From the NCBI GenBank assembly GCA_030697165.1, contig JAUYQQ010000015.1, positions 292,645 to 356,644 on the forward strand: DNA of 64,000 nucleotides, in the 5' to 3' direction. The notes under the pieces were generated by a model that saw nothing but the letters and a program-made list of their open reading frames with translations, had not been told where the DNA came from and ran no database searches. The stretch comes from Acidobacteriota bacterium (lineage in GTDB: Bacteria; Acidobacteriota; Vicinamibacteria; Vicinamibacterales; UBA2999). Of this stretch, positions 14,021 through 60,866 are shown piece by piece. The position numbers and the translations under genes were made by a program. Numbering within the stretch: the first letter of the stretch is position 1; each line of letters begins with the position of its first letter.

Positions 14021-14587
14021 ATGAAAAAGCACATATTCGCGGTCATTTGCGGCGCCGTTGCCATCAGTGCCGTCGCGGCCAGCGCGCAGCAATCTGGTGT
14101 CGCGACGCTTGTGCCACGCGGGCAGGCCTTGAAGTTTGCCGAGCCCTGGCGGCCGAACGGCGCCAGCGGGGCCACGCGCGTCATTGGCACCGTGATTGAC
14201 ATCCAGCAAACGCCCGTCGCCGGGGCCAGGCTGCGCTTGCGCAACCTCGCCACCGGCGCCATCGACGACACTGTGGAGTCGAACGCAAACGGCGAGTACG
14301 CGTTCGAAATTGACAGCTCCGGCGCCTACGTCGTCGAAATGGTGCTCGTCGACGGCTATATTCTCTCGCTCAGCAACGCCGGCTCGGTGGCGCGCTTCGA
14401 GACGCTGCAGACGGTCATTCAATTGCCGGGGCGGTGGGATGCGGGGCGTAACAACATGACGATGCAGCAGGGCTTCGGCGGATTTCTCGGCATGAGCGCC
14501 GCGACCAGCATGACCAACGGCACCCTGTCGCTCGCCCTCCAGGAAGGCGTGTCGACCGTGGCTTCCAGAGAACCGGTTTCGCCGTAA
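14021..14587 (+). CDS. Secreted protein with a carboxypeptidase-regulatory-like (CarboxypepD_reg) beta-sandwich domain
   Basis: 188-aa ORF with a signal peptide (AVICGAVAISAVAASAQQ). The segment GTVIDIQQTPVAGARLRLRNLATGAIDDTVESNANGEYAFE matches the CarboxypepD_reg pattern. Confidence 0.55.
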   Translation: MKKHIFAVICGAVAISAVAASAQQSGVATLVPRGQALKFAEPWRPNGASGATRVIGTVIDIQQTPVAGARLRLRNLATGAIDDTVESNANGEYAFEIDSSGAYVVEMVLVDGYILSLSNAGSVARFETLQTVIQLPGRWDAGRNNMTMQQGFGGFLGMSAATSMTNGTLSLALQEGVSTVASREPVSP

Positions 14588-14601
14588 GCCGTCGTTGCAT
14601 C

Positions 14602-16839
14602 ATGTCTGACGAAACAACCACACCTCGACCGACGCCGCCCGAGTTGGGCGACAACTCGTCGGCGGGCCCGGATTCGCACCTCTTCGATCGCCTGTCGGTG
14701 CTTTACAAGTACCGGTGGGCCAGCCTTACCGTGTTCGCACTGGTCGTCGGCTGGGTCATGGTCGACAGTTACACGCGCATCCCCGTCTACCGGGCGCTGG
14801 CGCGGGTGCTGATCGAGGATCCCAACACCGACATCACGACGCCCTCGGAAATCAGTCGCAATATTTCCCTTGCCGACCCTGAGATCTACGTGCAGACGCA
14901 GCTGCGTATCATGCGCGGCCGGGACTTGGCAAGCCGTGTGGCAGTCAAGCTCGACATGCAGCGCGTGCCGGAGTTCAACGGCCAGGGCCCCAAACCGACG
15001 CAGTTGGCGGTGGGCATTGCGCTCGTCAAGCATTACGCCGCCTGGCCGTACCGCCTCATCACGTCCAGCTCAATCGGGCCACCGGCGCCACTGGGTGACC
15101 TGAACGCCGATGCGTCGAGCTACCCCGACGCGTTGCTCAGCCGACAGAGTGTGGCGCCGGTCCGCGGCAGCCAGTTGGTGGACATCATGTTCGACGCCGC
15201 CGACCCGGCCTTCGCGGCGAGCGCCGCCAACGCCTTTGCCGACGAGTTTGTCACCAGCAATCTTGAGTACAAGGTCTCGACGCTCGAGAAGAGCGCGGAC
15301 TGGCTGACCGGCGAAGTCAGGAAGCAGGCCGAGTTGGTGAAGCAGAGCGAGATGGCCCTCGCGCAGTACAAGGAAACCGAAGACGCCGGGTCGCTCGACA
15401 GCAACCAGAACATCATCCTGGCCCGGCTGACGCAGTCGAACGAGGCGGTGACCAGGGCGCGGCTCGAGCGCATCCAGAAGGAGGGCCTGTGGCGGCAACT
15501 CCAGGATGCCGGGACCGATGTCGACTCGATTTCGTCGGTGCTGAACAACACCTACATTCAGAGCCTGCGCGCCTCGGTCAACACGCTGCAACAGGATCGC
15601 TCGCGCGCGGCCGAACGCTACGGCGAGAAGCATCCGGACTACCAGAAGGCGGTCACTGCCCTGGCCAACGCCGAACGGACGCTGGACGGCGAAATTCGCA
15701 AGGCGGTCCAGAACGCCAAGAACGAGTTCGACGCGGCGGTGACGCAGGAGCGCGAACTGCAGCGGCAGCTGAACGAGTCGAAGGTCGCGGCGACCGAGCT
15801 CGGCCGCAAGGGCGTCAACTACGCGGTGCTGTCGCGTGAGGCGGAGTCGAACCGCACGGTCTACAACCAGCTGCTGACGCGCGAAAAGGAATTGCGGGTC
15901 GTCGCCAACAGCCGGACCAACAACGTGCGCGTGGTTGACCGCGCCGAGATTCCGGCCGTGCCGTTCGCGCCGAACCACCGCCGCGACTGGCTCTACGCGA
16001 TCGCGCTCGGCCTCGCCTTAGGGCTGGGCATTGCTTTCGGCATCGACTACCTGGACGACACCGTCAAGACGCCCGACGACATCACCCGTCGCCTGCGGCT
16101 CAAGTTCCTCGGCCTGGTGCCGATCGTCGCGGGCGAGCGTCACCCGCTAATCTCGGGCCCGGTGCCGCACGACTTCGGCGAAGCCTACCGCGCCATTCGC
16201 ACGTCACTGACGGCGCAGTTCACGCACGACGGTCCGCGCGTGGTCGCGGTCGCCAGTTCGCAGCCGCTCGAGGGCAAGACGACGACCGCGGTGAACATCG
16301 CCATGGCGCTGGCGGTCGGCGGCGCCCGCGTGCTGCTGATCGATGCCGACATGCGACGGCCCAGCGTCCACAAGGCGCTGCGCATGACCAACGATCGCGG
16401 TCTGTCGCAGTTGCTGGCCGGACAGGCCCGCATGCGCGAAGTCGTCCAGCGCACCCACGACCCGAACCTGCTGACCATCACCGCCGGGCGCACGCCCGCC
16501 AACCCGTCGGAACTACTGGCGTCGGACCGCATGCGCGCCTTGCTCACCGGTCTCGAAACCGGCCCATTCGACTGGATCGTCATCGATACGCCGCCGGTAC
16601 TGGCGGTCACCGATGCCGTCATCCTTGCCCCGCTCGTCGGCGCCATGGTCTTCGTGATCGGCGCGGAAATGACGCGCTGGCGACTGGCCGAACGCGCGGT
16701 CGAGACCCTGCTCGGCAGCAATCCGCGCCAGGTGCTCGCGGTGCTGAACAAGGTCAACTTCGGACGCAACAAGTACTACTACTCGCGCTACTACGGCCAC
16801 CAGTACAAGAACTATTACGCAGAATCGCCGGCGGCCTGA
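14602..16839 (+). CDS. wzc: Polysaccharide co-polymerase / tyrosine autokinase (PCP-2a, Wzc/GumC-like)
   Basis: 745 aa. It has an N-terminal Wzz-type TM plus a coiled-coil periplasmic region. The C-terminal BY-kinase has Walker A (EGKTTT), A' (LLIDADMRRP) and B (DWIVIDTPP) motifs and a Tyr-rich tail (YYYSRYYGHQYKNYY). Confidence 0.9.
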   Translation: MSDETTTPRPTPPELGDNSSAGPDSHLFDRLSVLYKYRWASLTVFALVVGWVMVDSYTRIPVYRALARVLIEDPNTDITTPSEISRNISLADPEIYVQTQLRIMRGRDLASRVAVKLDMQRVPEFNGQGPKPTQLAVGIALVKHYAAWPYRLITSSSIGPPAPLGDLNADASSYPDALLSRQSVAPVRGSQLVDIMFDAADPAFAASAANAFADEFVTSNLEYKVSTLEKSADWLTGEVRKQAELVKQSEMALAQYKETEDAGSLDSNQNIILARLTQSNEAVTRARLERIQKEGLWRQLQDAGTDVDSISSVLNNTYIQSLRASVNTLQQDRSRAAERYGEKHPDYQKAVTALANAERTLDGEIRKAVQNAKNEFDAAVTQERELQRQLNESKVAATELGRKGVNYAVLSREAESNRTVYNQLLTREKELRVVANSRTNNVRVVDRAEIPAVPFAPNHRRDWLYAIALGLALGLGIAFGIDYLDDTVKTPDDITRRLRLKFLGLVPIVAGERHPLISGPVPHDFGEAYRAIRTSLTAQFTHDGPRVVAVASSQPLEGKTTTAVNIAMALAVGGARVLLIDADMRRPSVHKALRMTNDRGLSQLLAGQARMREVVQRTHDPNLLTITAGRTPANPSELLASDRMRALLTGLETGPFDWIVIDTPPVLAVTDAVILAPLVGAMVFVIGAEMTRWRLAERAVETLLGSNPRQVLAVLNKVNFGRNKYYYSRYYGHQYKNYYAESPAA

Positions 16840-16842
16840 TCC

Positions 16843-18267
16843 GTGCAGCGCGCGCTGCTCGTCCTGCTGGTCGCCGCCTCCTACCTGCTGTTTGCCGGCG
16901 CGCCGTCGTGGACGACGGCGCCGCTGCTCGGCCTGGCGGTGCTGGCGGCGGCGGTCGCTCCGCGCCGCACCCTGAACTTCCCGCCCGAATGGCGGGCGCT
17001 TGACCTCGCGCTGGTCGCCATCGTCGCGGCCATCCTGCTGCAGACCGTGCCGCTGCCGCCGGCGCTCGTCACCACCCTGTCGCCCGAAGCCGGCCGCGTG
17101 CGCGCGGCGCTGACGTTTGCGACCTTGGAGACCACCGGGTGGGCGGCGTTGTCGATCGATCCAGGAGCCACGCGCCACAGTGCCGCCACGGTGACACTGG
17201 GCATCCTCACCTTCTGGGTCGCGCGCGCGCTGTTCGGGGCCGGCGGCAACACTCGTTCGTTCTGCCGCATGCTGGCCGTGCTCGGCGCGGTGGTCGCGAT
17301 CGCCGCCGTCGTGCAGAAGGCGATCGCGCCGCGTTTGCTGTTGTTCGTGATGACGCCGGAAGCGCGCAGCGCAAGCCCGTTCGGCGCCTTCACCAATCGC
17401 AATCACTTCGCGGCCTGGCTGCTCCTGGTCACGGCGCCGGTCTTCGGTTACCTGATCGCCCGCCTGCGAACCCACCCGACCTATCGGGCCCGCCACTGGC
17501 GGGAGGCACTCAGGCGATTCCTCGGTTCCGGCATCGTGCTGACCGCGGTCTCCGTGTTGACTACCGTGTTGGTGATGTTGGCGACACTCTCGCGATCGGC
17601 GGTGGCCGGCCTCGGTGCGGCCGCGCTCTGCGGCTGGTGGCTCGGACGGCCCCGGATGGGCATGGAACGGACCAGCCTGCCGACGATACTCGCCGGGGTT
17701 GGCGTCGTGCTGGTGGCGACGATGGCCTTCGTGGACATCGATGGTTGGGCCGTGCGCCTGCAACAGACGTGGAGTCGCGAGCCGCTGGCGTTCAGCCGCG
17801 TGACCATCTGGCGCGAGAGCCTGCCGATGGTGCGCGACTTCTGGCTGACCGGCACCGGGGCCGGAACCTTCTCCGACGCCATGTCTCAGTACCAGCAGAC
17901 CCAGATGTGGGTGGGCTCGATGGGACGCTGGGCGCACTTCAACAACGCTCACTCCACCTACATCCAGGTCGCAAGCGAGGGTGGGCTGCTCTTGGCCGTC
18001 CCTGCGCTGACGGCGCTGGGGCTGTTCGCGATGCTGGGCTACCGCGCGGTTCGATCCGATAAGGGAGAGATGTTCTGGATGCGCCTGGGCGCTGCCGCTG
18101 GGCTGGTCGGGCTGGCCGTGCAGGGCGTGTGGGAGGTGCCGCTGACCATGCCGGCCAATGCCGTGCTGTGCGGAGTGGTGGCCGGGCTGCTGGTATTCCG
18201 GCGCGACAGTTCGCAGCCCGCCGGCACGGCCGACGGCCCGAGGCCGGCAAGGTTGTCCGCCTCATGA
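16843..18267 (+). CDS. O-antigen ligase / Wzy_C family membrane protein
   Basis: 474 aa, GTG start, about 10-12 TM helices. A periplasmic loop carries HFNNAHSTYIQVASEGGLL, typical of Wzy_C/O-antigen ligase domains. Confidence 0.8.
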   Translation: MQRALLVLLVAASYLLFAGAPSWTTAPLLGLAVLAAAVAPRRTLNFPPEWRALDLALVAIVAAILLQTVPLPPALVTTLSPEAGRVRAALTFATLETTGWAALSIDPGATRHSAATVTLGILTFWVARALFGAGGNTRSFCRMLAVLGAVVAIAAVVQKAIAPRLLLFVMTPEARSASPFGAFTNRNHFAAWLLLVTAPVFGYLIARLRTHPTYRARHWREALRRFLGSGIVLTAVSVLTTVLVMLATLSRSAVAGLGAAALCGWWLGRPRMGMERTSLPTILAGVGVVLVATMAFVDIDGWAVRLQQTWSREPLAFSRVTIWRESLPMVRDFWLTGTGAGTFSDAMSQYQQTQMWVGSMGRWAHFNNAHSTYIQVASEGGLLLAVPALTALGLFAMLGYRAVRSDKGEMFWMRLGAAAGLVGLAVQGVWEVPLTMPANAVLCGVVAGLLVFRRDSSQPAGTADGPRPARLSAS

Positions 18268-20015
18268 TTATCGTCGGGCTGAACGCCTATCACGGCGATG
18301 TCGCCGTGGCCGTGCTGCGCGACGGCGAACTGGTAGCCGCGCTCGAGGAAGAGCGTTTCTGCCGGATCAAGCACGTCGCCGGCTTTCCGTCCCGCGCGAT
18401 TGCGCGGGGCCTGGCCATGGCCGGTGCGCGGCCGGACGAAGTCGATGTGTGGGCGGTCGCCCGCGGCCGGCGGGTGCACCTGGCGCGAAAGGCGTGGTTC
18501 GCCCTGACCCATCGCCCCGGCAAGGCGCTGCTCGAACAGTACCGCAACACCGCCGGCAAGAACACGGCGATTGCCGACGTCATCGCCGACACGTTCGGTT
18601 TGGATCGGGCGGCGGTCAACGCCCGCACGCGATACATCGAGCATCACCCGGCCCACCTCGCCAGCGCGTACCGCACGAGCGGCCTGGACGAAGCTGCGTG
18701 CTGCGCCATCGATGGGTTCGGCGACTTCGTGAGCGTCTCGACGGCGCATGGCCGCGGCGGCCGCCTCGACGTGCTCGACCGCGTGTACTTTCCGCACTCG
18801 CTGGGCCTGGTCTATCTCGCCATCACCCAGTACCTCGGCTTCAAGAAGTACGGCGATGAATACAAGGTGATGGGCCTGGCGCCGTACGGGACGCCGCGCC
18901 ACGCCGAGGCGATTCACCAACTGCTGCGACTCGGGCCCGGCGGCGGCTTTCGCCTGAACCTCGAGTATTTCCGGCACTGGACCGGCGAAGCCACCATGAC
19001 CTGGAACGCCGGTGAGCCCAACGTCCCGGATGTCTTCACCGACCGACTGATCGACCTGCTGGGTCCCAGCCGCAGACCCGACGAGCCGGTGACGAGCGCC
19101 CATGAAGACCTCGCGGCATCGGTGCAACGGGTGTTCGAAGACGCCGCCTTCCACGTGCTGCGCGGCGTGCACCAGAGGATCCCGGTCGATCACCTCTGCC
19201 TCGCCGGCGGTTGTGCCATGAACAGCGTGGCCAACGGCAAGATTCGCCAGAACACGCCGTTTCGCCACGTGTTCATCCAGCCCGCGGCCGGCGATAACGG
19301 CACCGCCCTTGGCGCGGCGCTCGAGGCGTGGCATCAAAGCGGCGTACGGGCACTCGGACCGCGTATGGAACATTCGTACTGGGGCACGTCCTACACCGAC
19401 GCCGAGATTGCCACGGTGATTGCCGAGAGCGGGGTCGTGGCGCAGGGCCGCTGCCAGCTGACCACCATCGCCACTGAGGCGGCGCTCTGCGACGCGACGG
19501 CCGCGCGCCTGGCCGCCGGCGACGTCGTCGGGTGGTACCAGGGGCGAATGGAGTGGGGGGCGCGCGCGCTTGGCAATCGCAGCATCCTGGCGGATCCACG
19601 CCGCCGCGACATGCGCGACATCATCAACCAGAAGATCAAGTTCCGCGAGCGCTTCCGGCCCTTCGCACCGTCGATTCTCGCCGAGGCGATCGACGAGTAC
19701 TTCGTTGATGCGGTGCACGACCCGTTCATGATCCAGGTGTATCCGGTCAGGCCCGAGAAACGGGACGTGATACCGGCGGTGACGCACGTCGACGGCTCCG
19801 GGCGGCTGCAGTCGGTGAGCCAGGTCAGCAACCCACGGTATTGGGCGCTGATCCGGGCCTTCCACGCGCAGACCGGGGTGCCGGTGCTGCTCAATACGTC
19901 GTTCAACGAAAACGAGCCGATCGTGGAACGGCCCGAACAGGCGCTGGACTGCTTCCTGCGCACCGACATGGACGTGCTCGTCATGGGCTCGCACATGCTC
20001 CGGAAGCCAAGCTGA
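18264..20015 (+). CDS. Carbamoyltransferase (NodU/CmcH family), copy 1
   Basis: Start trimmed to the ATG at 18264 (ATGA overlap with the upstream stop). MIIVGLNAYHGDVAVAVLRDGELVAALEEERFCRIKH and the C-terminal ...LLNTSFNENEPIV are hallmark NodU/CmcH segments. Confidence 0.9.
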   Translation: MIIVGLNAYHGDVAVAVLRDGELVAALEEERFCRIKHVAGFPSRAIARGLAMAGARPDEVDVWAVARGRRVHLARKAWFALTHRPGKALLEQYRNTAGKNTAIADVIADTFGLDRAAVNARTRYIEHHPAHLASAYRTSGLDEAACCAIDGFGDFVSVSTAHGRGGRLDVLDRVYFPHSLGLVYLAITQYLGFKKYGDEYKVMGLAPYGTPRHAEAIHQLLRLGPGGGFRLNLEYFRHWTGEATMTWNAGEPNVPDVFTDRLIDLLGPSRRPDEPVTSAHEDLAASVQRVFEDAAFHVLRGVHQRIPVDHLCLAGGCAMNSVANGKIRQNTPFRHVFIQPAAGDNGTALGAALEAWHQSGVRALGPRMEHSYWGTSYTDAEIATVIAESGVVAQGRCQLTTIATEAALCDATAARLAAGDVVGWYQGRMEWGARALGNRSILADPRRRDMRDIINQKIKFRERFRPFAPSILAEAIDEYFVDAVHDPFMIQVYPVRPEKRDVIPAVTHVDGSGRLQSVSQVSNPRYWALIRAFHAQTGVPVLLNTSFNENEPIVERPEQALDCFLRTDMDVLVMGSHMLRKPS

Positions 20016-21253
20016 TGCCGGCGCCGGAGGGCGCGCCCGTGCGCGTCTGTTACTTCAATCGGTCGTATTGGCCCGACACCGGCGCCACCGGCCAGTTGCT
20101 CACGGAACTGGCGGAAGACCTCGCCTCGCAACATGGCATCGAGGTCACCGTCATTACGGGATATCCACTCAATGATGTGGCGTCCGGCTTCAGCCGGACC
20201 ATCGCCCGCACGGAGACCCGCAATGGCGTTCACATCGTGCGCGCCGCGGGCACCACGTTCGCGCAGCGCCGCTTCGCCGGCCGCGCGGCCAACTACCTCA
20301 CCTACTTCATCTCGGCGTTGTGGGCGGCCGTGCGACTGCCCCGCCAGGACGTGACCGTGGCGCTGACCGACCCGCCCATCATTGGGCTGGCCGCGCTCGC
20401 CGCCCGGCCGCGCCACGGCATGGTGTTCTTCTGCCAGGACATCTTTCCCGAAGTCGCCGGCCTCCTCGAAGACTTCCATAGCCCGCTGGTGAACGGGCTG
20501 CTCGATCGTCTGAACCGCTTCCTGGTCGACCGCGCCCGGCGCATCGTCGCGCTGGGCGACACCATGGCGCGGCGCCTGGTCGACGGCAAGGGCGCGGCGC
20601 CCTCGAAGATCACCGTGATTCACAACTGGGCAGATACGACGGCGATCGTGCCGGACGGAAAGCAGAATCCGTTTGCCGCCGCCCACGATCTGGCCGGCCG
20701 CTTCGTGGTGCTGCATGCCGGCAACATCGGCCATTCGCAAAACCTCGACGCCGTGATCGACGCCGCGGCACGCCTGGCGGCGCGTCCCGAGATCCTGATG
20801 CTGTTCATCGGCGACGGCAACCGAAAGCCGGCGCTGCAGGAGGCGGTTCGGGCGCGCGGCTTGGACAACGTGCGCTTTCTGCCCTTCCAGCCACGCGAGC
20901 ACCTGCGCTGGACCTATGCGACGAGTGACGTCTGCCTGGTGTCGTTGAAGCCCGGCCTGGCCGGTTACATCGTGCCGAGCAAGCTCTACCCGATTCTGGC
21001 CGCGGGCCGGCCGTACGTGGCGGCCGTCGAGGCGTCGAGCGAAGTGGCGGCGCTGACAGCGACCCATGGCAGCGGGGTCGTCACCGCGCCGGGCGATTCA
21101 GCGGCCCTGGCGGCGGCCATCGTCGCGCTGGCCGACGATCCAGAGCGCCGGCTGGCCATGGGCGCGCGCGCCAGGGACGCGGCGGCTCTGTTCGCGCGGG
21201 ACCGCCAGGTGTCGGCCCATGCCCAGGTGCTGCGCGAGGTCGCCGGCCGATGA
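20015..21253 (+). CDS. Glycosyltransferase family 4 (WcaI-like)
   Basis: Start at the ATG at 20015 (TGATG overlap). RVCYFNRSYWPDTGATGQLLTELAEDL is a WcaI-type N-terminus, and the C-terminal half is GT-B. Confidence 0.85.
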   Translation: MPAPEGAPVRVCYFNRSYWPDTGATGQLLTELAEDLASQHGIEVTVITGYPLNDVASGFSRTIARTETRNGVHIVRAAGTTFAQRRFAGRAANYLTYFISALWAAVRLPRQDVTVALTDPPIIGLAALAARPRHGMVFFCQDIFPEVAGLLEDFHSPLVNGLLDRLNRFLVDRARRIVALGDTMARRLVDGKGAAPSKITVIHNWADTTAIVPDGKQNPFAAAHDLAGRFVVLHAGNIGHSQNLDAVIDAAARLAARPEILMLFIGDGNRKPALQEAVRARGLDNVRFLPFQPREHLRWTYATSDVCLVSLKPGLAGYIVPSKLYPILAAGRPYVAAVEASSEVAALTATHGSGVVTAPGDSAALAAAIVALADDPERRLAMGARARDAAALFARDRQVSAHAQVLREVAGR

Positions 21254-30208: not shown

Positions 30209-30222
30209 GTGGGCGGTCGCGT

Positions 30223-43732: not shown

Positions 43733-43735
43733 CGA

Positions 43736-44536: not shown

Positions 44537-44551
44537 GCGGGGCCAACGATC

Positions 44552-45331: not shown

Positions 45332-45343
45332 GAGTAGTCTAGC

Positions 45344-48856: not shown

Positions 48857-48857
48857 G

Positions 48858-49910: not shown

Positions 49911-49950
49911 GGTTCAGCGGGCTCCAATCGGCTCCCACCACGAGCCGGTG

Positions 49951-51934: not shown

Positions 51935-51939
51935 CTCGA

Positions 51940-53169: not shown

Positions 53170-53939
53170 CAGCGCCGCCACGGGGCCTGACCGTTGACGT
53201 ACATCCGGTCGAGCAATTGCTGCTCGCGAAAGGTGTCCATGCACTGCCAGAATCCGGCGTGGTTGTAGGCGTTCAACTGGCCGCACTTCGCCAGGGTCTG
53301 CAACGGCTCGCGCTCCAGCACGCAGTCGTCGCCGGTCAGATAGCCGCCGATGCGCTTGTCCATCACGAAGAAGCCGCCGCTGATGAACGCCGCCTCCGTC
53401 TCAGGCTTTTCGTGGAAACCCACAATCGTCTGGCCATCCATCGCCAGTTCGCCGAAGCGCCCGGTGGGGTGCACAACCGTCACCGTGGCAATCTTGCCCT
53501 GCGACTCGTGGGCCCGGATCGAGGCGTTGATGTCGCTGTCGGTCACACCGTCGCCGTAGGTGAAGAGAAACGTATCCTCGTCGACGTAGGGGAGGGCTCG
53601 GCGCAGACGGCCGCCGGTCTGGGTGTCCTGTCCCGTATCGAGTAGAGTGACCGTCCAGTTCTCTTCTTCGGGCGGGTTGTGATACCTGATCTCCGGTTGG
53701 CGCCCCAGCCTGAGCGTAACGTCGCTCATGCTCCAGAGGTAGTTCCGGAAATACTCCTTGATGACTTCGCCCTTGTAACCTAAGCACAGGATGAAATCCG
53801 TGTGCCCGTGGTGGGCATACAGCTTCATGATGTGCCAGAGAATCGGGCGTCCCCCGATGGGCACCATCGGCTTGGGGCGGAATTCGGTCTCCTCCCGCAA
53901 CCGCGTCCCCAGACCGCCGCAGAGAATCACGACTTTCAT
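53166..53939 (-). CDS. rfbF: Glucose-1-phosphate cytidylyltransferase
   Basis: Start at the ATG at 53939 (ATGA overlap): [57 protein letters not shown], 257 aa. Confidence 0.9.
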
Positions 53940-55000
53940 GGCTGTGCCAGCCTCCTGCTGTCCCACGCCCCAACGATCTCCCGGATCGTGACGGGAAGCG
54001 ACTTGGTCAGGTCCCACTTGGGATAGTGCGCCCGCATCTTGCGCAAGTCCGAGTAATAGCAAACGTGGTCGCCGACGCGAGGTTGCTCCAGGTAGGCGTA
54101 GACTTGCGCTTTGCCGGTGAAGCCCTCGGTGATCGCGAACGCCTCGAGAATCGAGCAGGCGTTGTCCTTGCCGCCACCGAGGTTGTAAACCTCACCCGCG
54201 CGGGGCGCCGCGACGAACTCGGCCATGAACCGGGCGACGTCGAGCGAGTGGATGTTGTCCCGCACTTGTTTGCCCTTGTACCCGAACACCGTGTACTGGC
54301 GGCCTTCGAGATTGCATTTCACCAGGTACGACAAGAAGCCGTGCAATTCCACGCCCGCGTGATTCGGCCCCGTCAGGCAACCGCCCCGCAGGCAGCATGT
54401 CGGCATTCCGAAGTAGCGCCCATACTCCTGCACCATGACATCTGCCGCCACCTTGGAAGCGCCGAACAGCGAATGCTTGGACTGATCAATGGGAAAGGTC
54501 TCTGAAATGCCGTGCTCGTAAGCCGGGTCGGCGTAGTCCCATCGGGTGTCAAGCTCCCTGAGTGGGATGTTGTTCGGCGCGTCGCCGTAGACTTTGTTCG
54601 TGGACATGTGAATAAACGGCGACTCCGGGCACGCCTGGCGCGCCGCTTCCAACAGGTTCAACGTACCGACCGCGTTGGTATCGAAATCATCGAATGGAAT
54701 CGCCGCCGCCCGGTCGTGACTCGGCTGCGCGGCGGCGTGAACGATGACGTCCGGCCGCAAGGCCTTGACGAGAGCCAACACACCAGCGCGATCGCGGATG
54801 TCGAGCTCGTGATGCACGAAGGCCGGCAACTCTTGCTGCATGCGCCGCTGGTTCCATCGGGTGTCGCCCTGCGGACCGAAGAAGACCGCCCGTTGGTTGT
54901 TGTCCACGCCGTGGACGGCATGGGTCAACTCGCGGCTGAAGTAGGCAACCACTTGCGAACCGATCAGCCCGGAGGACCCAGTCACAAGCATGGTCCTCAT
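53936..55000 (-). CDS. Extended-SDR epimerase/dehydratase, CDP-paratose-2-epimerase-like, with FxxxK in place of YxxxK
   Basis: Start at the ATG at 55000 (ATGA overlap). It has [21 protein letters not shown] and [11 protein letters not shown] (Phe at the usual catalytic Tyr position, by-eye alignment). Confidence 0.85.
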
Positions 55001-55947
55001 TTCGAACCCTCGGTGATCGATGGACGCCGGAAAATGGCCACGAGATGGTCCTTCGAATAGGTGAGTGCCGGCGCAGTTGGCCATCGTTCTGCCCGGTTCA
55101 GGCCAGGCACCAGCCGAAGCGCCGAGGTGGCGAGTCCGGAGGGTTCGTCGCGAAACTGGTTGTAGGCCAGACCCTGGGCCCACTGCCTCGCGCGACTCGC
55201 CAAAGGCGTCTGGTAGTGGCTGCAGAAGTGGACGGCGGCCACGCGAAGGCCAACCCTGCTGGCGAGCCAATGGATATGCGCTTCGCTCGCCATGTGGAGG
55301 TGCCCGACTGAGCGGAAGTACCAGAACTCCGCGAATCGGGCCCGCGGACGGACAGCGTCGGCGTTGCCGGTGACAATTGCCAGCCACCCCTCAGGAGCGA
55401 GCCAGCTGGCTAGCGTGCCCACCAGCTCCGCCGGGCGCGGCAGATGTTCGTACACGTCACTGAGCACGATTGCGGCAAACTCCGGATTCCCCTCCGCGCT
55501 CAATTCCGCCTCTCGCACGATGCGAATGCCGCGCGCGCGTGCGACCTTCGCCGCCACCTCGTTGACCTCGACTCCCACACACGCAAGCCGGCTGCTTACT
55601 CCGGCGAGCGTGCGACCGGTGCTGCAGCCGAAATCGAGCACGCGGCTACCATCCGGCAACTGGTCCAGCCAATGACGAAGGTACCGCTCCGTCGGAAACG
55701 CCTCCCCTGCTTCATAGATCTCGCAGGAAAGCTGCGCATAATACGCACCAAGCTCCGAAGGCGGGAGTGTCCGCGACTTGAAATAAAGGTCGCACACGCT
55801 GCAGCGTCGAACAGAATAGTCTGGCTGCACGAACCGACCCCCGGCGCCCGACTCCGTAAAAGCGAGCGCCGGGCCGCCAACCTCCACCGCACCCAGGCCG
55901 CTGCAGGCGGGACAAGGCTTGAGGGCTTCCGTGCCAGGTGACAGCAT
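54997..55947 (-). CDS. Class I SAM-dependent methyltransferase with an N-terminal 4-Cys zinc-ribbon
   Basis: Start at the ATG at 55947 ([17 protein letters not shown]...CSVCDL). SAM motif [10 protein letters not shown]. It lies 8 nt downstream of wzt. Confidence 0.7.
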
Positions 55948-55955
55948 GGCCAGCG

Positions 55956-57236
55956 CTAGTTTCCGGCCGTGACAGACACGAATTCTGGTTGCTGCAAGCA
56001 GGGCAAGGCTAGCGCTCCGTACCCAAGGTTGTGCCGGAAATCCCACGCGCGCCCGCCTGGATTCGACGAGACCACGTCGAACTCCACGGCGTCCTCGACA
56101 TAGTGGTCAAAATGGGAATTGATGATCGAGGTTGCGATGTCAATCGTGTAAGTCCCGGACGCGAGCCACACTGGAGCGAGCGCGAGAACGGTGGTGTACT
56201 GTCCGGCCCGATCGGGCAGCGTGAGGCCGTGAAAGTGGTGGAGTGAGGCCATTCCCAGTTTCTGGCGTGCCGGGCCGACGAGGAACGCCTCCAGCGACAG
56301 GGACGAACTGCCATCGGTTTCCAGCACAACCTCGACGCGAAGCGGCGTGCCGGGAACGTAATGCTCAATGCCCTCCCCCAACTCGTTCAGCAGGCGCGCG
56401 CGACAAATCGCCGTGTGCGGACCGCGGCCAAGGAACGTCCTGCTCGGACTATGCGCTCGACCCATGCCGCTGTAGAACGCGACCGCCTCGACCGACGGGC
56501 CTTCAAACACGACTCGTCCTCGATTCAACACGATCGCGCGCGAAGTGAGGCTGCCGACCGCGGCCATGTTATGGCTCACGAACAACACCGTGCGGCCGCC
56601 CTGGCTGACGTCGCGCATCTTCCCCAGGCACTTCTTCTGGAACTCGGCATCGCCAACCGCCAACACCTCATCGACCACCAGGACCTCGGGCTCGAGGTGC
56701 GCCGCGACTGCGAACGCCAGCCGCATGTACATGCCAGACGAATAGCGCTTCACCGGCGTATCGAGAAACGTCTCGACCTCGGCAAACGCCACGATCTCGT
56801 CGAACTTGCGGTTGATCTCGGCGCGGGACATTCCGAGAATGGCGCCATTCAGGAAGATGTTCTCGCGACCCGTCAATTCCGGATGAAAGCCCGTACCCAC
56901 TTCGAGCAGGCTCGCCACGCGGCCGCAGAGGGTCACGCGCCCTTCGGTCGGCTCGGTGATGCGGCTCAGGATCTTGAGCAACGTGCTCTTGCCGGCGCCA
57001 TTGCGGCCGATGATGCCGACGACCGCCCCCTGGGCCACGTCGAAAGACACGTCTTTGAGGGCCCAGAAGTCCTCAGTGCCCGGTCGCGCCGGCCCGCCAC
57101 GCCTGAACCACCGCAGCGGCGAGGTCAGTGTGGAGGCCAGTACATCACGCAAGGCCACGTAGCGCTGGCCCTGCTGCTGGTGGCGAATGCGGTATCGCTT
57201 GCCGAGATTCTCGACCCTGATGACGGATTCGCTCAT
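55956..57236 (-). CDS. wzt: Polysaccharide ABC exporter ATP-binding protein with a C-terminal carbohydrate-binding-type extension
   Basis: 426 aa. Walker A GRNGAGKST, signature YSSGM and Walker B LVVDE lie in the first ~265 aa. These are followed by ~160 aa of predicted beta-rich sequence (Wzt_C-like). Confidence 0.9.
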   Translation of the reverse strand: MSESVIRVENLGKRYRIRHQQQGQRYVALRDVLASTLTSPLRWFRRGGPARPGTEDFWALKDVSFDVAQGAVVGIIGRNGAGKSTLLKILSRITEPTEGRVTLCGRVASLLEVGTGFHPELTGRENIFLNGAILGMSRAEINRKFDEIVAFAEVETFLDTPVKRYSSGMYMRLAFAVAAHLEPEVLVVDEVLAVGDAEFQKKCLGKMRDVSQGGRTVLFVSHNMAAVGSLTSRAIVLNRGRVVFEGPSVEAVAFYSGMGRAHSPSRTFLGRGPHTAICRARLLNELGEGIEHYVPGTPLRVEVVLETDGSSSLSLEAFLVGPARQKLGMASLHHFHGLTLPDRAGQYTTVLALAPVWLASGTYTIDIATSIINSHFDHYVEDAVEFDVVSSNPGGRAWDFRHNLGYGALALPCLQQPEFVSVTAGN

Positions 57237-57246: not shown

Positions 57247-58059
57247 TCAGATCACGTCGGCGAAGCCGCGCTCCATGCGGCGGAAATACCACACACCGAG
57301 GACCAGCACCGCTGCCGTCACGACCACCGACATCCCCACGCCACGGGGGTCGAGCGGCGATTGCGGCCCCAGAATGGACCACCGGAAACCATCGATGATC
57401 CCAACCAGCGGGTTCAGCACGTAGAGCGCTCGCCATCCCTCGGGCATGTTCGCGGTCGTGAAGGCAATCGGCGAGACAAACAGCCCGACCTGGACGATGA
57501 ACGGAACTACATAGCGGAAGTCCCGATATTCGACGTTGAGCGCCGCCATGAACAGCCCGAGGCCCAGGGCCAGGCTCGACGCCAGCAAGATGAAGAACGG
57601 CAGTGCGAGCATCGGCCAGCCCGGCGCCACGCCGTACCAGAGCATCAACACCGCCAGCAACGCGAACGTGACCAGGAAATCTGCGAACGCCGTCGCCACG
57701 GCCGCGGCCGGCACGAGGATCCGTGGAAAATACACTTTGGAAATGAGGCTGGCGTTGCCGACCAGGCTCGCGGACGACTCGGTGAGCGCCGTCGAGAAGA
57801 ACTGCCAGGGCAGCACCGCCGCGAACACGAGGACCGGTTCGGGAACGCCCGTCGCCGGCACGTCCACCAGTCGCCGAAAGGCGACGAACACCAGCATGGT
57901 GATCGCCGGACGAATAATCGCCCAGGCCACGCCGATGGCCGTCTGCTTGTAGCGAACGAGGATGTCTCGCCACGCGAGGAAGTACATCAGTTCGCGATAG
58001 CGCCACAGATCGCGCCAGTAGTGCGCGGCCGCGCGGCCGGGCTCGATGACAATTTTCAT
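57247..58059 (-). CDS. wzm: ABC-2 type polysaccharide exporter permease
   Basis: 270 aa with 6 TM helices. The N-terminus YRELMYFLAWRDILVRYKQTAIGVAWAIIRP is typical of Wzm/KpsM/TagG permeases. Confidence 0.9.
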   Translation of the reverse strand: MKIVIEPGRAAAHYWRDLWRYRELMYFLAWRDILVRYKQTAIGVAWAIIRPAITMLVFVAFRRLVDVPATGVPEPVLVFAAVLPWQFFSTALTESSASLVGNASLISKVYFPRILVPAAAVATAFADFLVTFALLAVLMLWYGVAPGWPMLALPFFILLASSLALGLGLFMAALNVEYRDFRYVVPFIVQVGLFVSPIAFTTANMPEGWRALYVLNPLVGIIDGFRWSILGPQSPLDPRGVGMSVVVTAAVLVLGVWYFRRMERGFADVI

Positions 58060-58099: not shown

Positions 58100-58960
58100 C
58101 TAGATCAGCCGCTGACGCACACGAATGGTGTCGTTCGCGCGGACGACGTCGGACATCGACGCGGAAATCTCGACTTCCTTGCCATTGATAATGCGGATGA
58201 TCTTGATGCCGCGAGTGGAACCACGTTCGTTGATGCCGCCGGCCACCGCCAGGGCCTGGCGCACGGTCATGCCCGGCGGCAGCGGAAATGCCCCAGGGGT
58301 CCGGACGAAGCCAGTCACGTAGAACTTGTCGGCGGGCGGCACCAGGATCACGTCGCTGTCCTGCAGCAGGATGTTCGCGGTGAGACGGCCTTCCTGCAGT
58401 TCGCGGTGGCTGACCCGCATGACCTCCGTTACCCGCGGATCGCCCGCCACCGGTGGCGCGGCAAGCGAGGCGGCAATGCCGTCCTTGAACCGCTGCACGA
58501 TGATCGTGTCGCTGGCGGTGGGGGTGAGCGAACCGGCCTGGCCAATCACCTCGAGCAGCGTCATCGGCCCTTCGATCGTGTAACGGCCGGGCTGCCTGAC
58601 CTCGCCAATCACGAAGATCGAGCGGCTGCGATAGGCGCCAATCTCGACCGACACCTGCGGCTTGTTGAGCCAACCGTCGGCAAGGGCCTTGGTCAGGTCC
58701 TCTTCAATCTGCCTGGTGGTCTTTCCTTCGACGGCGACTCGGCCGAGCAACGGGAAGGTAATGGTGCCATCGCCATCGACATTGTAATCGCCGTCATACT
58801 GCTCTTCGCGAAACACCCGGATTTTCAGGACGTCCGTGGCGCCAATCAGGTAGGTGGCGCTGGCCTGCGGTGGCGACTGCGAGCCGGGCACATCAGGGCG
58901 CTGCGGCGGAGCCGCAGTCTGAAGCACGATCAGGATGGCGAGCGACAGGGTGTGAAGCAT
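58100..58960 (-). CDS. wza: Outer-membrane polysaccharide export (OPX) protein, short Wza-like (Poly_export + SLBB, no C-terminal helix)
   Basis: Poly_export block (YLIGATDVLKIRVF...GDGTITFPLLGRVAVEGKT) and an SLBB block. About 286 aa from the ATG at 58960 (ORF track start 58981). It ends right after the SLBB region. Confidence 0.85.
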   Translation of the reverse strand: MLHTLSLAILIVLQTAAPPQRPDVPGSQSPPQASATYLIGATDVLKIRVFREEQYDGDYNVDGDGTITFPLLGRVAVEGKTTRQIEEDLTKALADGWLNKPQVSVEIGAYRSRSIFVIGEVRQPGRYTIEGPMTLLEVIGQAGSLTPTASDTIIVQRFKDGIAASLAAPPVAGDPRVTEVMRVSHRELQEGRLTANILLQDSDVILVPPADKFYVTGFVRTPGAFPLPPGMTVRQALAVAGGINERGSTRGIKIIRIINGKEVEISASMSDVVRANDTIRVRQRLI

Positions 58961-58962
58961 GA

Positions 58963-60207
58963 TCAGAATGCAACCAGCCACGAGAGGTAGACGCGACGGC
59001 GCTCGTAATTCCGATCGGCGCTAACGGGTGAACGGCGGCGCGAATACTCGTAATTCAGAGCGACGCGAGTCCGGTTCCTGAGATTATAACCGAGGCCTCC
59101 CGAGACCGTGTCGACCGTGTCTTCATGCGGCGGAACGGTTTCGCTGGCGTCGTAGTTAAAAAGGGATCGGGCGGCTCTGGCCTGGACGTCCACCATGCCA
59201 ACAATCCGGTGGGTGTAGGCAAGGCTGACCGAGTTCTCGATGAAGTACGCCTCAGCCGTGTCGAACGAATACTCGAGGTTGCGGCTCAGCCCGAGAGCGA
59301 ACCGGCCGACTTCCAGGAAGGAATAGCCCAAGGCCGCCGTACCCAATATGCCCTTGTACGCGCGCACCGCCGGATCGACCGGCGTCATCGCTCGATAGGT
59401 GAGCGACGCTGAGCCGTTAATGACCCCATCGGGTGAAAACCCCAGCTGGGCTGTCGTGTAGTAGCTTTCCGAGTTGCGCTCGGGCACGGAGGTGAACCGG
59501 TCTTCGTGATAGCCGCCAAACACCGTCAACGACAGCAGCGGCGTGATGTCGGTGCGCAGGCCGGCTGAGTAATCGTAGCCGTCGCGCGTCATGGTTTCAG
59601 CGACGTTGACGCCGTCCTCGAACGCATCCTCGAAGGCGTTGCTGGTGCGCGCGGTGGCGGCATAGACGAGCGAGTGCGCCGACAACTCGAAGGCGATGCC
59701 ACCGGAGAGCTCATCGCTCACGCGGTTGGCGCGGACGTCGATTTCCGCGTTGGCCCGCTCGCGGGTCTTGGTTTCACCGCCCGCCACGAACGGCCGAAGC
59801 CGACCAAGCAGCAGGTCAACCCGGCCCCGCAACTGATGCCCGACCGAGTCTTCACTGGTGTAGGTCTGGAAGTAGCTGAGCTCGGCACCGGCGTAGGCCG
59901 ACGCTTTGACGAAGCGCAGGCGGCTGAACACCGAAAGGTCGGGCTGCATCGCGATGAGGTAATCCTCTTTCGGCGACTCCGGTTCGTTGAACACGTTCGA
60001 GTCCCACCCGATTTCACGGATGGTCAGACCTGGAGCCAGCTTGACCGGGCCGAGCGACAACACGCCGGCGGTCGGCTCCGTCTCGGCCAGCGTGCCGGTC
60101 AAGGGTCCTGATCCGACGTTGGCTTGCGCGCCGGCTTCGGCCGCAGTCAAGCTCATGATCAGACAGACGATCAGGACGGGGATTCGGACGGGTAGAACAA
60201 CATTCAT
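58963..60207 (-). CDS. Outer-membrane beta-barrel protein (putative polysaccharide porin)
   Basis: 414 aa with a signal peptide (LIMSLTAAEAGAQ), alternating amphipathic beta-strand pattern rich in Y/G/S/T, and a C-terminal aromatic signal ...YLSWLVAF. Confidence 0.6.
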   Translation of the reverse strand: MNVVLPVRIPVLIVCLIMSLTAAEAGAQANVGSGPLTGTLAETEPTAGVLSLGPVKLAPGLTIREIGWDSNVFNEPESPKEDYLIAMQPDLSVFSRLRFVKASAYAGAELSYFQTYTSEDSVGHQLRGRVDLLLGRLRPFVAGGETKTRERANAEIDVRANRVSDELSGGIAFELSAHSLVYAATARTSNAFEDAFEDGVNVAETMTRDGYDYSAGLRTDITPLLSLTVFGGYHEDRFTSVPERNSESYYTTAQLGFSPDGVINGSASLTYRAMTPVDPAVRAYKGILGTAALGYSFLEVGRFALGLSRNLEYSFDTAEAYFIENSVSLAYTHRIVGMVDVQARAARSLFNYDASETVPPHEDTVDTVSGGLGYNLRNRTRVALNYEYSRRRSPVSADRNYERRRVYLSWLVAF

Positions 60208-60866
60208 TCAAACTCTCCCGGGTTGCGCACAGGCGCCTCGGCGTTCACGCGATCAAACCGGCCGTCGCCATCCGGATCCGCCTCCACCTGCAGGAAGCGG
60301 CCTTGTTCGTCATACCTGACCCGTCGATCGGGATTGCGTCCGGAGAACGTCGTGTCGAACGCCGCCTCCCTCAGGACCGGGCCTTCGTAGCGATCCCAGC
60401 GGTCGATGAATCCGTCGGCGTTGGTGTCTTCTTCGACCCGGACCAGCGCCGTGCCGCGATAGTACTCGTACCGATCACGCTGGCGGTCGCGGCGGCGCGA
60501 GCGCGCGAGTTGCACTTCGCCACTGGCATTTGGCGCCACCTCCAGCCAGGTGTCCTCGATGCCATCGTCCAGGCTTGACGTGCCGACGACGACGAGCGCC
60601 GCCTCGGCATTGAAGTACTCCCACCGGTCGATGCGGCCGTCGGCGTTCGCGTCGGCCTCGCCTCGTAGCGGCCGGTTGCCGTCGAGATAGGTCCACTGAT
60701 CGGCGCGGCCATCACCATTTTGGTCGGCACTCAGTTGGACGAGCCGGCCGGTGAAATCGTCGTGGCTCGGCTGGGCCCGCTTCGTGGTGGGCGCCGGCAC
60801 ACAAGCCGCGGACACGGCGGCAAGGGCCGCGATCAGGCCAAGAGTTAGTAACTGTGAATAGCCCAA
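60204..60866 (-). CDS. Lipoprotein with repeated D-x-[DN]-x-D-G-x-x-D-x-W calcium-binding-like motifs
   Basis: 220 aa, TTG start, lipobox (LAAVSAC). Motifs DQNGDGRADQW, DANADGRIDRW, DTNADGFIDRW and DPDGDGRFDRV. It is the first gene of the minus arm. Confidence 0.55.
   Translation of the reverse strand: MGYSQLLTLGLIAALAAVSAACVPAPTTKRAQPSHDDFTGRLVQLSADQNGDGRADQWTYLDGNRPLRGEADANADGRIDRWEYFNAEAALVVVGTSSLDDGIEDTWLEVAPNASGEVQLARSRRRDRQRDRYEYYRGTALVRVEEDTNADGFIDRWDRYEGPVLREAAFDTTFSGRNPDRRVRYDEQGRFLQVEADPDGDGRFDRVNAEAPVRNPGEFE

Follow-up and report, generated by a model that had tools for sequence, protein, structure and literature searches.

Within a 64,000-nucleotide stretch of an Acidobacteriota genome (Vicinamibacterales, UBA2999; assembly GCA_030697165.1, contig JAUYQQ010000015.1, positions 292,645 to 356,644; hereafter the window), a 46.8-kb polysaccharide locus at 14021–60866 combines an ABC-type export pair, Wzm/Wzt, with two polytopic proteins assigned to the Wzy/WaaL superfamily, a Wzc tyrosine-kinase co-polymerase and an OPX export protein encoded beside a beta-barrel, and encodes no recognisable Wzx flippase or Wzb phosphatase. 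The same locus occupies the same chromosomal site in relatives. The explanation tentatively placed first is that Wzm/Wzt may be the locus’s own exporter of a lipid-linked glycan, feeding the periplasmic Wzy/WaaL enzymes and a secretion route through Wzc, OPX and the barrel, all as parts of one integrated locus. A preliminary description of the window had offered three explanations for the mixture: two glycans made from one locus, missing parts encoded elsewhere, or a non-canonical coupling of ABC export to Wzc and OPX. The analysis shifts weight to the third, with two glycans and a wzx elsewhere in the genome keeping a substantial share.

Genes were called by filtering open reading frames (ORFs) on the GC content of third and other codon positions, because at ~66% GC the raw ORF lists for the window are full of shadow ORFs. 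Exactly 43 ORFs in 14021–60866 (~47 kb) passed, covering 99.5% of the interval with a widest gap between maximal ORFs of 40 bp. Seven genes lie on the + strand (14021–23062) and 36 on the - strand (60866 down to 23059), forming two convergent transcription units that meet tail-to-tail with a 4-bp overlap; relatives show this convergent junction too. Many maximal ORFs (among them 53936–55387, 39746–42001 and 51392–52450) start up to ~170 codons early, one reading as 483 aa against 354 aa in the gene call on the source contig. Since maximal ORFs overshoot the real starts in this way, the big apparent overlaps in the ORF list are high-GC artefacts, and real junctions are mostly 4-bp overlaps or gaps of <40 bp. 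Pfam and NCBIfam profile scans covered all 43 locus proteins and 16 flanking proteins (59 in total). The resulting inventory comprises 11 glycosyl or phosphoglycosyl transferases, seven methyltransferases, two carbamoyltransferases, one hexapeptide acetyltransferase, one weak SGNH protein and three amide-forming enzymes (AsnB, a sugar-transfer-associated ATP-grasp enzyme and a weakly PaaK-like adenylating enzyme), with one phosphoglycosyltransferase (PGT), one polysaccharide co-polymerase (PCP) and one OPX in the whole locus. The gene call agrees with the 43-gene, 46.8-kb mixed locus outlined previously, and the profile scans reproduce its component and decoration counts almost item by item; the mixed locus is real and not a chance pattern.

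No protein among the 59 matched Polysacc_synt, MurJ, MatE, LMWPc or PHP at E ≤ 1e-3, and the locus contains no unassigned stretch long enough for another gene, whether a wzx or a phosphatase. A hydropathy scan identified only three polytopic proteins in the locus: Wzm, a Wzy_C-domain protein (16843–18267) and a candidate repeat-unit polymerase (25673–27046; hereafter the Wzy-type protein). The Wzy-type protein passes the NCBIfam model for oligosaccharide repeat unit polymerases (Table 1) and has no Pfam match even at E = 10, and neither it nor the Wzy_C-domain protein matches a PDB structure by sequence (phmmer). Both were modelled with AlphaFold from alignments of >50 homologues and the models searched against the PDB with Foldseek. 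The best match of the Wzy_C-domain model (pLDDT 79.6, pTM 0.84) was the WaaL ligase (7TPG_B, E = 9.9e-7, probability 1.00, TM 0.53/0.61), followed by FtsW/RodA (SEDS) structures, while the Wzy-type model (pLDDT 82.1, pTM 0.84) had WaaL (7TPG) as its sole notable and weak match (probability 0.93, TM ~0.3). Neither model matched a MOP or MurJ fold. By profile and predicted fold, both proteins are assigned to the Wzy/WaaL superfamily and not to Wzx, with the fold match of the Wzy-type protein being weak; a Wzx hidden among the polytopic proteins is ruled out by Pfam (E up to 10), NCBIfam and the two models. These results bear out the earlier statements that the window holds two Wzy/O-antigen-ligase-like proteins and neither a Wzx nor a Wzb/PHP phosphatase, and they answer the question, raised at the same time, of whether either polytopic protein is a flippase: neither is, and both match WaaL best.

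The Wzy_C-domain protein would be a ligase or a polymerase, as the modelled fold alone does not separate the two; its gene is linked to wzc and not to wzm/wzt, and always adjoins wzc in relatives. The Wzy-type protein has 1243 homologues, the best 120 of which share 60–93% identity with it and include some named ‘O-antigen polymerase [Vicinamibacterales bacterium]’; such conservation is unusually high for a Wzy. A 504-aa product without a Pfam match (28859–30373) was rejected as a further membrane protein, being soluble and weakly PaaK/AMP-ligase-like. A cognate phosphatase of the LMWPc or PHP type was likewise not found in relatives, within the regions seen. In Myxococcus xanthus the cognate tyrosine phosphatase is unlinked and this is normal, and by that analogy the absence of wzb from the locus is not remarkable. 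The M. xanthus enzyme, PhpA, is described in reference 41 of PMC12819527.

Wzm, 70–76% identical in relatives, is the only inner-membrane translocase encoded in the locus. Its weak NCBIfam matches (galactan Wzm; KpsM, 35 bits vs a cutoff of 300; VexB, 26 vs 297) are all far below cutoffs. The best PDB match of Wzt is the full-length Aquifex aeolicus Wzt (8DKU/7K2T, E = 8e-69), with residues 51–376 aligned, well past the ATPase domain, and TarH/TagH structures are also among the best. Together, the ABC2_membrane, ABC_tran and A. aeolicus matches confirm that an ABC export pair is present, as first described. From its sequence, the C-terminal extension of Wzt is likely, though not proven, to be a carbohydrate-binding, cap-sensing domain like that of O-antigen Wzt proteins. 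It is called only likely because the Wzt_C profile scores 21.9 bits, below its Pfam cutoff of 30.4, and the isolated domain has no PDB match, despite the alignment to 8DKU and a Wzt_C match (E at most 1e-5) in the Wzt of one relative (locus L091).

The genes for OPX, Wzm and Wzt follow one another on one strand, separated by 40 and 10 bp, and a class-I methyltransferase is encoded immediately downstream of wzt. This methyltransferase has no similarity to WbdD, which rules out a WbdD-like terminator, and it is regarded as a candidate chain- or unit-capping enzyme. Among relatives whose neighbouring gene lay in view, 6/7 have a methyltransferase gene beside wzt. It follows wzt in the window, L087 and L089 and lies between wzm and wzt in L091; the enzyme is of the FkbM type in L092 and L096, and L095 has a family 2 glycosyltransferase (GT2) there instead. 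The families of the wzt-adjacent methyltransferases thus differ between relatives, in a comparison that excludes L088 and L090, where the neighbouring gene lies outside the view.

Wzc is a PCP-2a co-polymerase fused to a BY-type tyrosine autokinase, 73–82% identical in relatives, with two membrane helices around a ~400-residue periplasmic region. It has Walker A (GKT), A' (DADMRRP) and B (VIDTPP) motifs and a C-terminal tail with eight tyrosines (NKYYYSRYYGHQYKNYY). With these motifs and tyrosines intact, the kinase looks catalytically competent. The OPX, 60–92% identical in relatives, consists of Poly_export and two SLBB domains and nothing else, and its C-terminus (RANDTIRVRQRLI) is polar, not hydrophobic; lacking an outer-membrane-spanning C-terminal helix, it is a class-3 OPX as defined in PMC9603273. 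Its NCBIfam matches to the EpsE, EpsY and pepcterm_export profiles are all below cutoffs. The adjacent gene encodes a BBP2_2 barrel with a signal peptide and a C-terminal ...SWLVAF (terminal Phe); the two genes overlap or abut (a 2-bp gap by the relatives’ gene calls), and the barrel gene is directly upstream of the OPX gene in 8/8 relatives. This pair has the gene arrangement of a class-3 OPX/beta-barrel composite translocon. The pairing of a short OPX with a beta-barrel porin is documented (PMC9601211, PMC9603273), the arrangement having been described in 2022 and structurally dissected in 2026 (PMC9601211, PMC9603273, PMC12819527). Of the ‘group-1-like’ hallmarks named in the preliminary description, Wzc and an OPX are indeed present, whereas the OPX is not of the group-1 or Wza kind, being a short class-3 protein with an adjacent barrel.

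Relatives carry the locus at the same chromosomal site at about 57–85% identity. Their + unit has the order lipoprotein, Wzc, Wzy_C, carbamoyltransferase, family 4 glycosyltransferase (GT4), PGT and reductase, and the facing - unit the order GT2, GT4, Wzy, AsnB, PaaK-like, DUF362, GT4, DUF362, ATP-grasp and methyltransferase. At the other end, where the window has u220 (the first gene of the - unit), the order u220-like gene-BBP2_2-OPX-Wzm-Wzt is found in all six relatives with full upstream context (L087, L089, L091, L092, L095, L096), with the methyltransferase of L091 between Wzm and Wzt; as far as they reach, the short contigs L088 and L090 agree with this order. As in the window, this block adjoins Dam, trigger factor, ClpP, ClpX and Lon. 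A metagenome scan with the OPX as query gave four loci. Overlapping loci L084 and L091, on a 284-kb JGI contig, make up a complete locus of ~32 kb that includes both ends (OPX, barrel, Wzm, Wzt, Wzy, Wzy_C, Wzc and PGT) and nine transferases; viewed end to end, it contains no Wzx. A 154-kb contig carries both ends, separated by ~40 kb and bounded by the same flanks. Strains differ in the middle of the locus, which starts at the gene following wzt and extends to the carbamoyltransferase-2/SGNH region. Because relatives carry both arms, linked, at the same site, the arms are not independent loci: this is one lineage-conserved locus whose assembly and export ends are conserved and whose centre varies. 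The possibility that relatives would show two independent, conventional loci, considered in the preliminary description, is not borne out.

Similar mixtures occur in other phyla. Eighty comparison loci from many phyla were picked by similarity to the window Wzt (≤54% identity over full length) and are not a random sample. A Wzc-like gene lies within 10 kb in 17/80 of them, mostly with the kinase domain covered, and an OPX gene in seven (local tblastn). The most compact arrangement is on a Methylomirabilota metagenome-assembled genome (MAG) contig (L078, JACPAT010000148.1, 35–7387), where OPX, Wzc, Wzy_C, Wzm and Wzt are collinear within 7.4 kb and followed by a PaaK-like gene, with no further polytopic protein on the 13-kb contig. 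Wzy_C-Wzc stands beside Wzm-Wzt in an Acidobacteriaceae locus (L005), and an alphaproteobacterial locus (L033) has the order Wzc-OPX-PGT-Wzm-Wzt. The polytopic proteins tested in mixed loci were Wzy_C proteins together with one acyltransferase, one exosortase and one PMT_2 GT-C enzyme; none was a Wzx. Local hidden Markov models (HMMs) of the two Wzy-like families of the window did not classify the other weakly polytopic ORFs in the comparison set, which resemble, by their sequence starts, an ABC exporter, an acyltransferase, an exosortase and full-length PGTs.

From these observations we infer that Wzm/Wzt serves the Wzy/Wzc/OPX route, that the methyltransferase caps and that the two Wzy-like proteins divide the labour. 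The small PGT would start a polyprenyl-diphosphate-linked glycan. In the cytoplasm, conserved and strain-specific transferases would extend it and add carbamoyl, methyl, acetyl and amide-linked decorations as well as, here, a CDP-derived C-methyl amino sugar. The wzt-adjacent methyltransferase would cap the glycan, and Wzm/Wzt would move it across the inner membrane, the C-terminal domain of Wzt sensing the cap. In the periplasm, the two Wzy/WaaL-superfamily enzymes would link exported units or blocks to one another, attach them to an acceptor, or both, and the Wzc co-polymerase would pass the product to the short OPX and the beta-barrel porin for secretion. This coupling is favoured because Wzm is the sole candidate translocase, the other two polytopic proteins being Wzy/WaaL by HMM and fold; because the u220, BBP2_2, OPX, Wzm and Wzt genes are collinear (gaps ≤40 bp) in the same 36-gene unit as the Wzy-type gene; because the two arms are physically linked in relatives and Wzx is absent from the locus seen end to end; because PGT, PCP and OPX each occur only once; and because other phyla also have compact Wzc/OPX/Wzy_C/Wzm/Wzt clusters. 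An ABC flippase (PglK, Wzk) reportedly can replace Wzx functionally in Escherichia coli. Among cataloged short-OPX/barrel couples, 14/453 were assigned to ABC pathways (PMC9601211).

Several points weigh against this coupling. A wzx could lie elsewhere in the genome, the search having covered the 59 window proteins and the relatives’ regions. A cap-binding type of Wzt with an adjacent methyltransferase is the signature of classical ABC export of finished O-antigen chains, a route for which a WaaL-type ligase suffices, the Wzy_C-domain protein being a candidate here, and which requires neither Wzy nor Wzc nor OPX. The carbohydrate-binding assignment of Wzt is itself weak, with the Pfam score under its cutoff and the isolated domain lacking a PDB match. 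The choice of the 80 comparison loci by Wzt similarity is not a random sampling, and co-location may be inflated because polysaccharide genes tend to cluster in islands. No Wzm/Wzt-type (type V) ABC transporter is known to feed a Wzy polymerase. Finally, the variable block adjoins wzm/wzt in the manner of O-antigen loci and the Wzy-type gene belongs to the conserved block, and for that reason two products would also fit.

Two glycans from one island, with the Wzx and Wzb of the second encoded elsewhere, are accordingly a possibility to be taken seriously, if a somewhat doubtful one. The first would be a strain-variable, methyl-capped ABC O-antigen (or S-layer or protein glycan), made with Wzm/Wzt, the capping methyltransferase, the variable glycosyltransferase and CDP-sugar genes and the Wzy_C protein as ligase. 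The second would be a conserved Wzy-dependent exopolysaccharide, made with the PGT, the conserved glycosyltransferases, AsnB/ATP-grasp decoration, the TIGR04370 Wzy, Wzc, the class-3 OPX and the barrel. All parts of a canonical ABC O-polysaccharide pathway are present (Wzm, a Wzt with a likely carbohydrate-binding domain, an adjacent methyltransferase and a WaaL-fold protein); the gene content beside wzt varies as in O-antigen loci, with Wzy, AsnB, PGT and Wzc 60–85% conserved, and an unlinked tyrosine phosphatase is normal in Myxococcus. In Vibrio cholerae NRT36S (O31), wzm, wzt, wzx, wzy and wza/b/c occur together in one mixed capsule (CPS)/O-antigen region (Chen et al. 2007, PMC1847822). 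Two products would, however, leave the Wzy arm without a flippase in every relative seen, including the locus viewed end to end. Flippase genes of the wzx type almost always lie inside Wzy-dependent clusters, which counts against an unlinked wzx. The whole ABC arm stands between wzc and the OPX and barrel genes, which form one translationally compact unit with wzm/wzt in 8/8 relatives; the Wzy_C protein, supposedly the ligase of the ABC arm, adjoins wzc instead (in the window, L005 and L078); and one initiating PGT would have to serve two products.

Another alternative, and an improbable one, is a purely ABC-dependent capsule or exopolysaccharide, in which finished chains would pass through Wzm/Wzt and then Wzc, OPX and barrel as in the Kps and Vi systems, with a kinase-bearing PCP; the Wzy-like proteins would then be only ligases or anchoring enzymes, and no repeat units would be polymerised in the periplasm. 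The OPX gene beside wzm/wzt agrees with this, as do WaaL being the best match for both polytopic proteins and several unrelated loci (L033, L040, L041 and L075 among them) that have Wzc(+OPX) and Wzm/Wzt and in which neither Wzy nor Wzx is detectable within 10 kb. Yet the Wzy-type protein passes TIGR04370 and is encoded by one of the best conserved genes of the locus, no KpsS/KpsC-type linker enzyme is encoded in the locus, and no PCP of an ABC-dependent capsule system is known to carry a kinase. Membership of the Kps type proper is ruled out, there being no Capsule_synth match (KpsS/KpsC), a sole PCP that bears a kinase, and KpsM and VexB matches far below cutoffs.

An exosortase (XrtA/XrtB)/PEP-CTERM exopolysaccharide locus of the Methylobacillus eps type is suggested by some of the best NCBIfam names (EpsF/EpsG, XrtA-associated tyrosine kinase, EpsE, EpsL, XrtA/PEP-CTERM amidotransferase, EpsB_2) and by a cyanobacterial locus (L014) with an exosortase near OPX and Wzm/Wzt. 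All Eps/PEP-CTERM matches are nevertheless far below their curated cutoffs (for example, 390 vs 817, 135 vs 231, 42 vs 275), and no exosortase-like polytopic protein occurs in the window or relatives, so that such a system is hardly credible and, for the window, effectively excluded. In that cyanobacterial MAG the exosortase gene (L014:3479–4429; EpsH, 101 bits) lies a few kb from OPX and Wzm/Wzt, a link in this organism between exosortase systems and polysaccharide export of the ABC type.

Mixed wzm/wzt and Wzy-type loci are not new in themselves, and class-3 OPX/barrel pairs are established. A wzm transposon mutant of V. cholerae NRT36S lost its capsule (PMC1847822), and the ABC-2 transporter of a mixed locus can therefore be important to a secreted polymer. 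The NRT36S region resembles the locus in size (~46 kb) and in having wzm/wzt, a wzy candidate, wza/wzc and many glycosyltransferase and nucleotide-sugar genes; unlike the locus, which lacks wzx and wzb, has a class-3 OPX with a barrel and is conserved order-wide, it has both wzx and wzb and is serogroup-specific. Its OPX we take to be Wza-type. ABC pathways for O-antigens and S-layer glycans with a cap-sensing Wzt include those of E. coli O9a, the A. aeolicus Wzm-Wzt and the Geobacillus slg cluster; they share with the locus a Wzm/Wzt pair, with the C-terminal extension here aligning to A. aeolicus Wzt, and an adjacent methyltransferase. Geobacillus also has a Bac_transf-type initiating enzyme (WsaP), and a Wzy_C-domain transferase has its counterpart in WaaL or WsaB; these pathways differ in that they are not known to include a Wzy polymerase, BY-kinase PCP or OPX. 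E. coli group 2/3 and Salmonella Vi systems (KpsMT-KpsE-KpsD; VexABCD) likewise encode an ABC-2 transporter, a PCP and an OPX that together carry finished polymer across the envelope, whereas the window PCP is PCP-2a with an active-looking kinase, not PCP-3, KpsS/KpsC/KpsF/KpsU are lacking and Wzy-type proteins are present. The EpsY/EpsX and WzaB/WzpB systems of M. xanthus (PMC9601211, PMC9603273, PMC12819527) have a short OPX without an outer-membrane helix, an adjacent barrel and a Wzc-type PCP, but belong to complete Wzx/Wzy pathways, and the window barrel is BBP2_2 (EpsL-like). In cyanobacterial exopolysaccharide gene sets, Wzy- and ABC-pathway components coexist, some strains having no obvious Wzx (Pereira et al. 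2015, PMC4594306). Mixed components are thus common to both, and Synechocystis wzc is a few genes from wzm/wzt, judged by gene numbering; the cyanobacterial genes are mostly scattered, unlike the compact, syntenic two-operon locus (PMC4594306).

The literature search returned no described ABC and Wzy ‘hybrid pathway’, nothing specific on Vicinamibacteria polysaccharides, and no account of a compact locus, conserved throughout an order, in which a Wzy-type polymerase, a BY-kinase PCP, a class-3 OPX/barrel and Wzm/Wzt occur together without Wzx. An O-antigen-type ABC pump as the sole inner-membrane transporter, in place of the usual Wzx flippase, suggests, without proving it, that known parts are wired together in an unusual way. 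A broader form of the preferred ABC coupling, which we consider rather unlikely, is that a cap-sensing Wzm/Wzt replaced Wzx as the feeder of Wzy/Wzc polymerisation and class-3 OPX/barrel secretion in Vicinamibacterales and in similar clusters (Methylomirabilota and other phyla), delivering complete, methyl-capped lipid-linked units or short blocks for periplasmic polymerisation. If true, it would be a fourth assembly logic beside the Wzx/Wzy-, ABC- and synthase-dependent pathways. The sorting of surface polysaccharides into three schemes underlies gene-cluster annotation, serotype prediction and pathway engineering; should Wzm/Wzt feed periplasmic machinery, the schemes would be more interchangeable than textbooks say, kinase-bearing co-polymerases could serve ABC routes, and Wzt might use its cap-sensing domain to check the completion of units as well as of finished chains. 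The product also has ecological interest, since Vicinamibacterales abound in soil and their extracellular polymers probably influence its aggregation. If wzx is simply elsewhere, the locus would be an ordinary, though very richly decorated, two-product polysaccharide island.

Table 1. Features of the polysaccharide locus, with positions in the window
Feature	Position	Strand	Basis and remarks
Secreted 188-aa protein, CarboxypepD_reg/SdrD_B-like beta-sandwich	14021..14587	+	Pfam; signal-like N-terminal helix; first gene of + unit, directly upstream of wzc
Wzc, PCP-2a co-polymerase fused to BY tyrosine autokinase	14602..16839	+	GNVR + AAA_31; TIGR01007 167.9 bits vs cutoff 108
Polytopic Wzy_C-domain protein, WaaL-like predicted fold	16843..18267	+	Pfam Wzy_C 57 bits vs cutoff 31.7
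Carbamoyltransferase 1 (NodU-like) and GT4, two genes	18129..21253	+	Carbam_trans_N/C, Glycos_transf_1/Glyco_transf_4; NodU-like by NCBIfam; maximal-ORF coordinates overlap; syntenic in relatives
Polyprenyl-phosphate phosphoglycosyltransferase (PGT), 201 aa, one membrane helix	21250..21855	+	Bac_transf 205.9 bits
FAD-dependent geranylgeranyl-reductase-family flavoprotein	21896..23062	+	TIGR02032 180.8 bits vs cutoff 158.8; Pfam Lycopene_cycl/FAD_binding_3
GT2, class-I methyltransferase, GT4; last three genes of - unit	23059..25922	-	Pfam
Wzy-type repeat-unit polymerase candidate, ~10-11 transmembrane helices	25673..27046	-	NCBIfam TIGR04370 ‘oligosaccharide repeat unit polymerase’ 47.1 bits vs cutoff 40
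Glutamine-dependent AsnB-type amidotransferase	27033..28913	-	Asn_synthase + GATase_7; TIGR01536 426.5 bits vs cutoff 267
Decoration module: PaaK-like adenylating enzyme, DUF362, GT4, DUF362, sugar-transfer-associated ATP-grasp, methyltransferase	28859..36462	-	Pfam/NCBIfam
GT4, GT2, SGNH-like protein (sub-threshold), 111-aa single-helix protein	36237..39736	-	Pfam; hydropathy
Strain-variable transferase block: carbamoyltransferase 2, GT2, Glyco_trans_1_2, two FkbM methyltransferases, GT4-like, Glyco_trans_1_2	39746..47709	-	Pfam
Strain-variable nucleotide-sugar block	47726..55387	-	DegT aminotransferase, SDR, CmcI-type O-methyltransferase, NeuD/PglB/VioB-type acetyltransferase, RmlC-like epimerase, TylCIII-type C-methyltransferase, glucose-1-P cytidylyltransferase, 4,6-dehydratase
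Class-I methyltransferase immediately downstream of wzt	54997..56046	-	Methyltransf_23 75 bits
Wzt ABC ATPase with ~170-aa C-terminal extension	55956..57236	-	ABC_tran 80.9 bits; 426 aa
Wzm ABC-2 permease	57247..58059	-	ABC2_membrane 71 bits
Class-3 (short, D1-D2-D2) OPX periplasmic export protein	58100..58981	-	Poly_export + 2 SLBB; 286 aa (assembly gene call)
Outer-membrane beta-barrel (BBP2_2/EpsL-like), presumed porin partner of OPX	58963..60207	-	PF10082 71.2 bits vs cutoff 23.7; 414 aa
Secreted or lipoprotein-like 220-aa protein (u220), first gene of - unit	60204..60866	-	Four DxDxDG-type calcium-binding-like repeats at residues 48, 72, 147, 197

The biosynthetic genes follow the same division into conserved ends and variable middle. 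The locus encodes no initiating enzyme besides the PGT, which matches the EPS_sugtrans/WcaJ/WbaP models in their C-terminal catalytic domain and is 77–81% identical in relatives. Directly after it, in every relative, is the gene of the geranylgeranyl-reductase-family flavoprotein (75–81% identical). Saturation of the polyprenyl carrier, or of a lipid anchor for the glycan, is a possible role of this enzyme and would be unusual in a bacterial polysaccharide locus. At the end of the facing unit, the GT2 and GT4 are kept in all relatives, and the methyltransferase between them is missing in L082 and L084 and present in L094. The AsnB gene always adjoins the Wzy-type gene (L082, L084, L086, L093, L094). 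The decoration module that follows is syntenic at 59–81% identity in L082 and L084 and absent in L086. Its paralogous DUF362 pair (30223–31575 and 32653–34017, - strand) flanks a GT4 gene and is grouped with the ATP-grasp, PaaK-like and AsnB genes, a module seen in most relatives, L086 excepted, that is probably an amino-acid or acyl amide decoration pathway.

Homologues of the next gene set, which includes the SGNH-like protein, are found in L086 and L091, and the content of the transferase block beyond it is different in every relative examined. In the nucleotide-sugar block, the NCBIfam scores are 350.8 bits for TIGR02623 (cutoff 300), 164.4 for TIGR01221 (cutoff 155.75) and 160.3 for TIGR03570 (cutoff 160.8), the first identifying a bona fide glucose-1-phosphate cytidylyltransferase. 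Judged by its enzyme families, the block would make a CDP-activated, C-methyl-branched, N-acetylated amino-6-deoxyhexose; it is absent from the complete ~32-kb locus of the relative (L084/L091). In the corresponding variable region downstream of wzt, an 84%-identity relative (L087:18048–19721) encodes a protein of 557 aa with ~12 transmembrane helices, no Pfam match and no likeness to either Wzy-like family of the window, which could be a GT-C enzyme, another polymerase or a flippase.

At the two outer ends of the locus, the secreted beta-sandwich protein upstream of Wzc has homologues in the same position in L093 and L094, and u220 has no family match above threshold in Pfam or NCBIfam. A u220 homologue (56–75% identity) is directly upstream of BBP2_2 in L087 and L089, and an unannotated gene of 215–242 aa takes this position in L091, L092, L095 and L096. 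The left flank (4564–13793, - strand), kept in L093 and L094, encodes an 828-aa ADOP-family duplicated permease (TIGR03434, 834 bits) and three consecutive PQQ-like beta-propeller proteins; ADOP permeases are a family expanded in Acidobacteria. On the opposite side, an ECF sigma factor and a putative anti-sigma factor (158–159 aa) are encoded between the Dam-like methylase and the locus in L091, L092 and L096 (~6100–7900), beside a small protein (DUF6249 in L092 and L096, an unannotated 128-aa protein in L091). The window has none of these genes there (60867–61155), the methylase gene following 290 bp after the locus, and they may represent a lost or relocated regulator of the locus. Locus L095 (GCA_019752015.1, JAIEMQ010000007.1), labelled ‘Cyanobacteria bacterium’, has the Lon-ClpX-ClpP-Tig-Dam and barrel-OPX-Wzm-Wzt arrangement with a 66% identical OPX, which suggests that the contig or bin is misclassified and really comes from a Vicinamibacterales relative.

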